Assembly (NCBI GenBank): GCA_046597055.1
Contig: JBKJLC010000111.1
Coordinates: 1-29,960 of the forward strand
DNA from: Kofleriaceae bacterium
GTDB taxonomy: Bacteria; Myxococcota_A; Polyangia; Haliangiales; Haliangiaceae
DNA length: 29,960 nucleotides
Direction: 5' to 3'
Each line of letters begins with the position of its first letter. Position 1 is the first letter of the stretch. Shown here piece after piece: positions 1-5,369 of this stretch. The position numbers and the translations under genes are program-made. A model generated the notes under the pieces. That model worked only from the letters and a program-made list of their open reading frames with translations, ran no database searches and was not told the origin of the DNA.

Positions 1-269
1 TGCTGGTGCACATCGGCGTCGCCGGGGTCCGCCTCCGCGCCGACGTCGCGCGGCTGGCGCGGGCCGAGCGCGCGTCGCTGGTCATCTGCGGCCACTCGCA
101 CATCCCGTTCATCGGCAGCGAGCGCGGGCTGACGGTCTTCAATCCGGGCTCGGTCGGCCCCCGGCGGTTCAGCCTGCCGATCGTGTTCGGCACCATGGAG
201 GTCGGGGCCACCGGGGTCCGGCTCGGCCACGTCGACGCCGAGACCGGCCTTGCGTGGAGCCCGCCGTGA
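1..269 (+). CDS. Metallophosphoesterase, YfcE/MJ0936 family (5'-truncated by window edge)
   Basis: Motifs CGHSHIP and FNPGSVG; the frame is open to the window start. Confidence 0.85.
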
Positions 270-357
270 CCACGCCGACCGCGGGAACCGCGCGGCAGGG
301 TCGTTCGTCCCGAGCTCGAGCTCGCCGGACGCGCCCCGCGCATCGGGCGCCCGCACA

Positions 358-975
358 GGCACATCTTCTCCGGTGGCCCTGAGCCAGGGCTCGCGCAGCG
401 AGCCCGCGGTCGAAGGTTAGACCGTCGAAGAACACGTGCTGCACCCTGCCGCGCTGCCCTCGGGATTGATCACAAGTCTTCATGTGATCGGAAGCGCTCA
501 CCTTTCCCGGTGGCCCTGTGCCGGCGCCGCAGGCGCCGTGTCGAAGGGCAGAGCGCCAAGGTGCCGCACGTGATCTTCGACGGACTGCCCTTCGACGGCG
601 GGCTCGCTTGCGCTCGCCCTGGCTCAGGGCCACCGGAAAGATGTGCGGGATCCTGAGGGCAGCGGGCAGCGCTCAGGATCCCGCACATGTTCGTCCGGTG
701 TCCGTGAGCGAAGGCTCGCGCAGCGAGCCGAAGTCGAAGGGCGGCCCGTCGAAGATCGCGTGCTGCACCCTGCGCCTCTGGCCTCTGGCCCTTCGACACG
801 GCGCCTGCGGCGCCGGCTCAGGGCCACCGGGAAAGGCAACGAGTTCGGTCACCTGGCGAGTTGCGATCAATGCCGAGGGCAGCGCGGCGAGGTGCCGCAT
901 GTGAGCTTCGGTGGTCCGCCGTTCGACCGCGGGCTCGCTGCGCGAGCCCTGGCTCAGGGCCACCGGAACACGTGC
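358..975. repeat. Nested REP/BIME-like array forming a ~620-bp imperfect palindrome (6 units)
   Basis: Units of CCGGTGGCCCTGAGC-(GC hairpin)-GTCGAAGG run forward at ~370-416, 507-548 and 695-741, and reverse at ~588-636, 789-830 and 919-966. The spacers are also mirrored. The centre is the hairpin ATGTGCGGGATCCTGAG...CTCAGGATCCCGCACAT (641-688). Confidence 0.9.
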
Positions 976-1089
976 GGGATCCCGAGGCCCCCCCATCAAC
1001 CGGCAGCATCAGCCGCGCTTCGCCGGATCGTGCCACGCGAGCCGCGCCCGTGCCGCTCGCCGGCGCGAGGCGCGTCCGTGGGGGCCGCC

Positions 1090-1109
1090 GCGTTGCCGCG
1101 ATGCAACGC
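1090..1109. promoter_or_regulatory. Palindromic putative enhancer-binding-protein site (UAS)
   Basis: Perfect GCGTTGC-N6-GCAACGC, ~95 bp upstream of the predicted sigma54 start site. Confidence 0.5.
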
Positions 1110-1168
1110 CCTCGGTCGCTCGCTCGCGGGCGTGGTTGCAGCGAGCTGATCCGACAGACCAGACGGGG

Positions 1169-1184
1169 TGGCACATCGGCTGCA
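1169..1184 (+). promoter_or_regulatory. Sigma54 (-24/-12) promoter
   Basis: TGGCACATCGGCTGCA has exact GG-N10-GC spacing and ends ~54 nt before the ATG at 1238. Confidence 0.7.
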
Positions 1185-1237
1185 CTCACGGGTTCACACA
1201 AACCAACGGCGACCCTCGCCGAGAGCGGAGCAGGACC

Positions 1238-1441
1238 ATGATCAAGAACAAGCAGTCGAAGCTGACCCTCGCGAAGCACACGATCCGTCAGCTGAACGCC
1301 CTGAACAACGACGAGATCGCCCAGGCTGCCGGCGGCGGCACGTCCGGCTACGGCATGTGCAAGAACTACGCGACGCTGTACTGCTCGGTGGGCGGTGGCC
1401 GCGGCACCTGTTACGCAATGGTAGAGGCGCCCATCGAATGA
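1238..1441 (+). CDS. Putative RiPP precursor peptide (lanthipeptide-like leader, double-glycine site), 67 aa
   Basis: MIKNKQSKLTLAKHTIRQLNALNNDEIAQAAGG|GTSGYGMCKNYATLYCSVGGGRGTCYAMVEAPIE. RBS GGAGCAGGA directly upstream, strong GC3 codon bias, own promoter. Confidence 0.75.
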   Translation: MIKNKQSKLTLAKHTIRQLNALNNDEIAQAAGGGTSGYGMCKNYATLYCSVGGGRGTCYAMVEAPIE

Positions 1442-1457
1442 GGATCGCGGTTGCTCT

Positions 1458-5180
<3,723 letters not shown>

Positions 5181-5369
5181 GCTCGCAGCATAACCCACCG
5201 CCTGTGCGGCGCGATCGCGAACACCGTCCGCTGCCCGGCTGACACGCGATCGGCGCACGGCCGCAGGCGCCGACTGGGCGAGATGTAGGCAGGCAGGACC
5301 CGGCCCGGGAGTGGCGCTCCCGCGGGCGGCCCGGGGCTCGAGCACAGGGTCGGCCCCCCCGCCCGCCGG

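Follow-up and report, generated by a model that had tools for sequence, protein, structure and literature searches.

What could mature the product of a lanthipeptide precursor gene that stands alone, away from any modifying enzyme? The question is raised by a 67-codon gene near one end of contig JBKJLC010000111.1 in the assembly GCA_046597055.1 of a Kofleriaceae bacterium, of which a stretch of 29,960 nucleotides (nt), positions 1 to 29,960, was analyzed (the window). The source bin (G000) comprises 8.4 Mb in 303 contigs with a guanine-cytosine (GC) content of 72%, and is 94% complete with a contamination of 7.55%. The contig of the window, C178, is covered from its first base, and the 67-residue precursor protein is called P0001. 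The explanation that we consider probable is that positions 1238-1441 hold a conserved class I-type precursor gene that has its own predicted sigma-54-type promoter and is likely matured in trans, by the products of enzyme genes located on other contigs. The features on which this explanation rests are as follows.

1238..1441, forward strand: precursor gene of P0001, 67 codons and a stop codon, recognized from its translation, GC phasing, homologs and mostly synonymous differences from the copies in a relative (G107)
1238..1336, forward strand: leader, residues 1-33, with the LxLxKx5L box (L9, L11, K13, L19) and a Gly32-Gly33 end
1337..1438, forward strand: core, residues 34-67, with Ser/Thr36-Cys41, Thr46-Cys49 and Ser50-Cys58, followed by a 9-residue acidic tail
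1227..1230, forward strand: ribosome-binding site (RBS) GGAG, read from the sequence, in a block kept in the metagenomic homolog L079
1169..1184, forward strand: predicted sigma-54-type -24/-12 promoter TGGCAC-N5-CTGCA, the sole match in the window, with 0.07 expected by chance
1146..1162, forward strand: near-palindromic block just upstream of the promoter, in the window conserved with L079, a putative regulator site

The gene is real and conserved, and lies within a longer spurious open reading frame (ORF). The ATG start codon at 1238 has the GGAG 7 nt on its 5' side, the TGA stop codon occupies 1439-1441, and the 67 codons form the 3' end of a 176-codon ORF at 911-1441. The GC content at the three codon positions is 0.52/0.46/0.90 in 1238-1438 and 0.69/0.74/0.78 in the upstream part, 911-1237; by this contrast, in a genome of 72% GC, a coding appearance is confined to the last 67 codons. 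Three homologs with 70-84% identity came from a word-indexed search of 5.8 billion proteins, five further ones with 60-66% identity from an exhaustive search of 1.84 billion cluster representatives, and two more from a profile search; in all, 10 full-length homologs and one leaderless copy were counted. All come from metagenomes or metagenome-assembled genomes, and they reach down to 54% identity in independent metagenomes. Compared with the full-length copy of G107, 21 of 29 aligned core codons are identical, six differ synonymously and two non-synonymously; for the other G107 copy, three of 10 codons are identical and seven synonymous, with no non-synonymous difference. The GC phasing, the RBS, the homologs and the mostly synonymous differences together establish the gene, and thus bear out the preliminary description, made from the letters of the window, which had placed a 67-codon ORF with an RBS inside a longer spurious ORF.

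Some of what these searches returned was set aside. P0010, a protein of 1,299 residues from the representative search, is an unrelated repeat protein matched by composition, and the metagenome matches L080 and L081 are out-of-frame chance matches to the GGGRG-C pattern. P0006 and P0013 carry the precomputed label PF28317. For P0007 a contig of 515,880 nt is on record, and for P0011 one of 9,851 nt; neither locus was returned by scans of two sequence collections. Window positions 1100-1500 are contained wholly or partly in ten sequencing runs of DNA or unknown type from five studies; none is listed as RNA, so that these runs are uninformative on expression.

To which class does the peptide belong? 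The gene had initially been described as encoding a ribosomally made, post-translationally modified peptide (RiPP) precursor with a class I lanthipeptide leader of Gram-negative type, a GG site, and a 34-residue core with 3 Cys, 3 Thr, 2 Ser and 4 Tyr. These features stand as first noted, and the sequence supports classification of P0001 as a class I lanthipeptide precursor with a Gram-negative-type LxLxKx5L...GG leader. The leader reads L9-T-L11-A-K13-HTIRQ-L19, which satisfies the LxLxKx5L motif, and G32-G33 aligns with the (A/V)-A-G-G leader ends of the family. In the parts of Walker et al. (2020; PMC7268733) drawn on here, this motif is described for class I LanAs of Bacteroidetes, many leaders of which end in GG, and a C39 protease is described as often encoded in the clusters of LanAs of this type. 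The NCBIfam model NF038153 (lant_leader_L1a, cut-off 22 bits) is passed by the homolog P0004 with 24.6 bits, while P0002 and P0003 score 16.3 and 15.4 bits; P0004 is 71% identical to P0001 and carries the NCBI name 'class I lanthipeptide'.

The core fits the same class. An alignment of 12 family members has C41, T46, C49, S50, G53-G54-R55-G56 and C58 unchanged throughout, with either Ser or Thr at position 36 in every sequence. The three Ser/Thr-to-Cys pairs have spacings of i to i+5, i to i+3 and i to i+8. Thus, an invariant Ser/Thr stands upstream of each invariant Cys, the polarity expected of three successive (methyl)lanthionine rings, and the core may well carry three non-overlapping thioether rings. 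Because the number of Cys is odd, not all of them are able to pair in disulfides. In most homologs the C-terminus lies 1-3 residues past the third Cys, and the long acidic tail ending in (I/L)-E occurs only in P0001, P0009 and the second copy of G107. The earlier suggestion that the Tyr residues might form aryl cross-links found no support: Tyr38, Tyr44 and Tyr48, the Tyr positions covered by the alignment, all vary, and Tyr59 is in the variable tail.

A sigma-54-type promoter of its own is predicted to drive transcription of the precursor. The same element was found in L079, and the upstream alignment with this homolog keeps blocks at the promoter, at the near-palindrome, and at the RBS and start codon. 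In L079 the two 6-nt arms of the near-palindrome are perfectly complementary, and the block may, speculatively, be a regulator binding site. A looser sigma-54 pattern has 88 matches in the 8.4-Mb genome. The first of two GG-leader peptides on another contig, C190, has a similar element about 28 nt upstream of its leader start. In the wider leader family the element was found in three of 32 upstream regions, and is therefore not a trait of the whole family.

How isolated is the gene? Its neighbors are the following.

3..269, forward strand: Metallophos_2 phosphoesterase gene, 3' part truncated where the contig ends (Pfam positions 87-151 of 154)
350..1000, no strand: array of nested direct and inverted repeats, resembling repetitive extragenic palindromes or miniature inverted-repeat transposable elements, between the phosphoesterase gene and the precursor gene
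1458..5345, reverse strand: convergent Ser/Thr kinase gene with an AAA_16 (STAND-type) domain, from the ORF list and Pfam (Pkinase and AAA_16)

A phosphoesterase, a repeat array and a convergent kinase had been named as the neighbors at the outset, and Pfam and repeat analysis agree; the kinase frame ends 16 nt past the precursor stop. As the window starts at the contig end, only 1,237 nt upstream of the precursor are visible in it. The upstream side was extended by contig C70, at the start of which positions 1-59 of Metallophos_2 were found, reading outward. In sequencing run X2, letters 1-848 of a 1,007-letter contig with a depth of 16.4 cover positions 1-848 of C70 on the minus strand, and letters 915-1007 of a contig of equal length and depth cover positions 1-93 of the window; given the equal length and depth, both records were taken to be one contig, joining C70 to C178. 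Run X2 may be the source of the bin itself, which makes this bridge a second assembly and not an independent sample. The 66 nt between C70 and C178 in the bridging contig fit the missing part of the phosphoesterase gene. The joined stretch measures about 53 kb and extends about 24.6 kb from the precursor on one side and 28.5 kb on the other.

No match to LanB, LanC or C39 was found on C178 or C70 in genome-wide searches of G000. A Pfam scan of the 21 ORFs of the window and 15 frames of C70 revealed housekeeping and signaling genes only, with no radical S-adenosylmethionine (SAM), cytochrome P450 or glycosyltransferase family among them. Thus, the absence of a nearby synthetase, first remarked for the window, holds there and across the joined contigs, and the precursor is a true orphan gene with no maturase on about 53 kb.

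Two side observations concern these surroundings. The family of the repeat array has 633 blastn high-scoring pairs on 114 of the 303 contigs, of which pairs 245 are no more than 1.5 kb away from a contig end, and the summed contig word depth over the array rises to 4,677, compared with 9-18 in the flanks; this family probably causes much of the assembly fragmentation. On C70 (L082), a 1,035-residue frame at 361-3468 on the reverse strand, with EGF-like and Sushi (SCR) repeats, adjoins the phosphoesterase gene upstream of the precursor. EGF-like and Sushi domains are typical of animals.

The candidate enzymes are encoded elsewhere in G000. The sole Lant_dehydr_N match in the bin is a full-length LanB on contig C42, scoring 514.8 bits for Lant_dehydr_N and 207.2 bits for Lant_dehydr_C. 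It is followed on the same strand by a GAF-HlyD adaptor gene and then by the first 72 positions of a C39 domain running off the contig. The leader hidden Markov model (HMM) found no leader-type ORF on C42 (9,936 nt), which leaves this LanB with no substrate of its own in view over the 9.9 kb assembled. The sole LANC_like match is a 443-residue frame on C279 (134 bits), located between a kinase-WD40 gene and an FHA-sigma-54 activator gene. Its product is 49% identical to the LanC of the G107 cluster, and both retain the GLAHG, WCYG and CHG stretches. Six C39 matches were found, two of which are full-length ATP-binding cassette (ABC) exporters without a LanB nearby. The GAF domain of the adaptor following LanB is N-terminal both in G000 (C42, L013, 303-2240, reverse strand) and in G107 (C245, L041, 2002-3921, forward strand); the two proteins are 54% identical, and the fusion is an unusual one for a peptide-export adaptor.

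The pairing of LanB with the precursor was also modeled. A complex of LanB residues 1-720 with the precursor was predicted alongside three controls, using our own alignments, for which the benchmark counts hold only roughly. The score was 0.57, the best of the three controls reaching 0.00, with a contact agreement between runs of at least 31% and a partner predicted local distance difference test value of at least 39. Of 157 solved complexes, 116 attained this mark, as did two of 215 mismatched pairs; those attaining it with scores of 0.60 or under were only 18 of the 157 solved complexes and both of the mismatches that passed. A like complex, of a LanB with its leader, has been solved, and the passing score may therefore reflect likeness only. 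The prediction lends the pairing weak support.

The only other genome with the peptide family is G107, which contains one full-length and one leaderless copy. A pattern scan covering 185,579 species genomes gave two loci, both from a single record; since their two peptides are those of G107, no further genome was added. In G107 an assembly break, where C98 ends and C245 starts, divides LanB, and its two halves are 63% and 71% identical to the LanB of G000, making it the closest among the loci compared; the next-best LanBs have 64%, 63% and 60% identity, and those of the same genus about 48-49%. The gene order LanB, GAF-HlyD, C39-ABC is common to both genomes, and continues in G107 with a second HlyD and LanC. 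The position of the full-length copy is 38.5 kb within a contig of 49.9 kb, on which no LanB or LanC match was found; as C98 and C245 abut at LanB, contig arithmetic puts this copy about 49 kb or more from LanB. No genes around the precursor are shared between the C178 proteins and the G107 loci, and the 11 neighbors of the G107 copy have no homolog on C178 or C70.

The second copy of G107 (C350, L036, 9922-10083, reverse strand) has the GG site, the core and the acidic tail without the LxLxKx5L leader. It begins right after the stop codon of a sigma-54-activator-like gene, in the same frame, and is probably a truncated copy.

Does the leader occur more widely? In 147 genomes of the order, the family profile at E <=0.001 gave matches in 15, G000 included, most of them to the leader only. 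LanB was found in 83 of the 147 (a tally that includes the unpublished G037 and G038) and in 13 of the 14 relatives with a leader match. Leader copies beside LanB, which the preliminary description had suggested looking for, were found in these relatives: at least five of the 18 leader matches outside G000 (G056 C342, G050 C635, G021 C22 and two on G085 C551) share their contig with a LanB match 1.2-9 kb away, a lower bound counted over the LanB matches listed, with 70 more beyond these. The 1.5-kb LanB flanks of L065 and L060 also contain such ORFs, two in tandem (E 1.6e-6 and 7.1e-5) and one (E 0.0016), respectively. Over the fetched loci, the leader HMM revealed many small ORFs with a shared leader and very different Cys/Ser/Thr-rich cores.

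Within G000, a search of 122,263 six-frame ORFs with the leader HMM recovered the precursor gene itself and three further candidates. One of these, on C231, is a small ORF with a pyridoxal phosphate-dependent decarboxylase gene and genes for proteins of unknown function as neighbors, and matched at E 0.0011; the other two are tandem small ORFs on C190, at E 0.051 (leader HMM) and E 0.41 (full-length HMM). The cores of these candidates differ. The gene had been proposed to belong to a dispersed set of precursors with variable cores; three further leader-sharing candidates do exist in other places, and the set is small and its matches weak (E 0.0011-0.41), so that a small dispersed paralog set in G000 is weakly supported by sequence likeness. 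Leader-sharing ORFs, a LanB, a LanC and six C39 matches are thus all present in the bin, so that two of the three findings named at the outset as refuting the idea, the lack of any leader-sharing relative and the lack of a maturase or C39 transporter, do not apply.

The regulatory genes in these regions recur. On C190 (L075, 324-11737), genes for a kinase-WD40 protein, a Ser/Thr kinase, an FHA-sigma-54 activator, a C39-ABC exporter and an HlyD protein are followed by the two tandem GG-leader ORFs, which have Cys-rich cores and no modifying enzyme gene nearby. Kinase-WD40 and FHA-sigma-54 activator genes also flank LanC in G000 (C279, L014, 149-6725) and the whole LanB-LanC cluster in G107 (C98 and C245, L040 and L041).

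How would the orphan precursor be matured? In the probable scenario, the single full-length LanB of C42 would bind the leader and dehydrate Ser/Thr36, Thr46 and Ser50 using glutamyl-tRNA. The single LanC of C279 would then add Cys41, Cys49 and Cys58 to the dehydrated residues, yielding three successive non-overlapping rings. A C39-peptidase ABC exporter with an HlyD-type adaptor, for example the one beside LanB, would cut after Gly33 and export the 34-residue product. Use of the predicted promoter would put the precursor under sigma-54 control, and the exported peptide would presumably be active. We infer that modification would take place in trans and that the enzymes may be promiscuous.

Several points weigh against this explanation, starting with the peptide and its gene. 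P0001 itself scores 13.5 bits with NF038153, under the cut-off; a Pfam search of P0001 gave no match; the sigma-54 element is absent upstream of the copy in G107; and the precursor gene is absent from all 16 other genomes of the same genus that were searched. The pairing with LanB is exposed as well. In neither genome is an enzyme linked to the precursor, which leaves co-occurrence in two bins as the basis of the pairing. With LanB as frequent in the order as it is, finding it in 13 of the 14 relatives that have a leader match amounts to no more than a mild enrichment. One relative, G118 (99% complete), combines a leader match with the absence of LanB, and the cluster region of G107 itself contains two weakly matching leader-like ORFs (E 0.0011 and 0.048). 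In G000, C42 has the highest GC content of the 303 contigs (0.762 versus a mean of 0.719) and a tetranucleotide distance in the 93rd percentile among 41 contigs of similar size. Such a compositional outlier, in a bin with 7.55% contamination, might carry a LanB that belongs to another organism or was recently acquired; C42 may be either recently acquired or wrongly binned. C42 is also cut at both ends, and a precursor of its own could lie just beyond.

Which other explanations have to be weighed? The one that survives best, itself unlikely, is that P0001 is an unmodified or disulfide-only GG-leader peptide, namely a class II-type bacteriocin or a signal, exported by a C39-ABC/HlyD system such as the C190 module without involvement of LanB. 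The two full-length C39 exporters without a LanB nearby would provide the means, and the C190 module offers a parallel, with two GG-leader peptides, no modifying enzyme beside them, and a sigma-54-type element before the first peptide as before the gene in the window. Family members also match models of GG-type bacteriocins weakly, with P0011 scoring 18.3 bits for Bacteriocin_IIc against a cut-off of 27.1. However, three invariant Cys cannot all pair, an invariant Ser/Thr stands upstream of each Cys in 12 of 12 sequences, the leader is of the LanB-associated type, and the family co-occurs with the closest pair of LanB clusters.

Improbable to a greater degree is maturation by another class of enzyme, through radical-SAM thioether formation of the TIGR04149 type, glycocin-like S- or O-glycosylation, or aryl cross-links at Tyr. 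The core is rich in Tyr, and sub-threshold matches to two models were found: P0001 scores 17 bits with glycocin_F (NF033417, cut-off 40), and P0003 scores 17.5 bits with TIGR04149 (cut-off 25 bits), for which P0001 gave no match. However, these matches remain below the curated cut-offs; they start in the leader, cross the GG site and reach into the core. None of the enzymes required is encoded among the ORFs scanned in the window and on C70, the neighbors of the G107 copy recur on neither contig, and the aligned Tyr positions vary. Glycocins have two nested disulfides, for which four Cys are needed. The core of P0001 has three.

About equally improbable is that the gene is a relic, left behind by rearrangement of a former cluster and no longer expressed or matured. 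It adjoins a repeat array from a family with hundreds of copies, shares no conserved synteny with the copy of G107, whose second copy has lost its leader, and is missing from the rest of the genus sampled. In contrast, its frame, RBS and start codon are intact, the promoter and RBS blocks are kept in L079, the differences from the G107 copies are mostly synonymous, and the full-length gene has been kept, unlinked, in two genera. Finally, that the frame is no gene at all is next to impossible and already contradicted: long spurious ORFs do abound in high-GC genomes, and this frame is part of one, but the homologs in independent metagenomes down to 54% identity, the GC content of 0.90 at third and 0.46 at second codon positions, and the synonymous pattern all speak for a gene.

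What distinguishes this conserved, probably trans-matured precursor from known systems? The LxLxKx5L-GG class I precursors, as covered by the parts of Walker et al. (2020; PMC7268733) used here, by NF038153 and by pinensin-type clusters, have the same leader motif, GG end and Ser/Thr- and Cys-containing core, and G000 likewise has a C39-peptidase exporter beside LanB. Unlike the Bacteroidetes precursors, P0001 comes from a non-Bacteroidetes host of 72% GC, and its core belongs to a separate conserved small family. Unlike clustered class I precursors, it has no LanB, LanC or C39 within at least 24 kb on one side and 28.5 kb on the other.

Its remoteness recalls the prochlorosins of marine cyanobacteria, class II peptides made by ProcM, whose precursors, in the same parts of that source (PMC7268733), are likewise distant from their synthetase and escape cluster-based mining. 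A comparable economy would apply here, with one enzyme set serving several precursors that share a leader. ProcM, however, is a class II LanM acting on Nif11-type leaders, whereas separate LanB and LanC proteins and an L1a-type leader are found here; the only LANC_like match in G000 is the 443-residue frame, and thus no protein of LanM size carries this domain. Tens of hypervariable precursors in the prochlorosin system compare with about four candidates and a conserved family core in the present one. The prochlorosin-like logic first proposed therefore fits in that the precursor is unlinked, and does not fit in that its core is conserved rather than hypervariable.

Nisin-type class I systems (NisA, NisB, NisC, NisT, NisP) have the same full-length LanB, with glutamylation and elimination domains, and a stand-alone LanC, and in nisin-type precursors as in P0001 the Ser/Thr is N-terminal to its Cys partner. 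Nisin itself is encoded in a linked operon, with an FNLD-type leader and a separate LanP protease. The present system differs from it in its GG leader, C39 exporter and unlinked precursor. Among myxobacteria, a related group of bacteria, Myxococin is a characterized lanthipeptide (Wang et al., 2023, J Am Chem Soc), described in PMC11251773 as having five overlapping bridges, whereas three non-overlapping rings are predicted for P0001.

Overall, neither the type of leader nor the GG/C39 logic nor the chemistry of LanB and LanC is new, and one homolog already bears an NCBI label. Less usual is a class I precursor that is unlinked in two genera and has its own predicted sigma-54 promoter. A non-exhaustive search of the literature found no paper on unlinked class I precursors, the class II prochlorosins being the known case. 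The limit of cluster-based mining stated in the consulted parts of Walker et al. (2020; PMC7268733) is seven open reading frames. Mining confined to the vicinity of a synthetase leaves stand-alone precursors uncounted, and the chemical output of LanB and LanC is thereby underestimated.

Tentatively, and as a possibility that we would not yet call likely, split class I systems may exist outside cyanobacteria, in which LanB, LanC and the exporter are kept in one place and a stand-alone sigma-54 precursor lies tens of kb away, as in these two genera, switched by flanking kinase/FHA-sigma-54 cascades. Such a regulatory link is suggested by the predicted sigma-54 promoter of the precursor in combination with the kinases and FHA-sigma-54 activators encoded next to the enzyme genes. 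The peptide family is small, uncharacterized and environmental, and its predicted ring pattern is simple. With one LanB, one LanC, one conserved three-ring candidate substrate and three weaker ones, G000 offers a compact test case for a class I enzyme pair working on substrates encoded elsewhere. If the split arrangement is true, the peptide would be a regulated signal or weapon instead of a constitutive cluster product, and would represent a class of substrates that cluster-based genome mining has missed.

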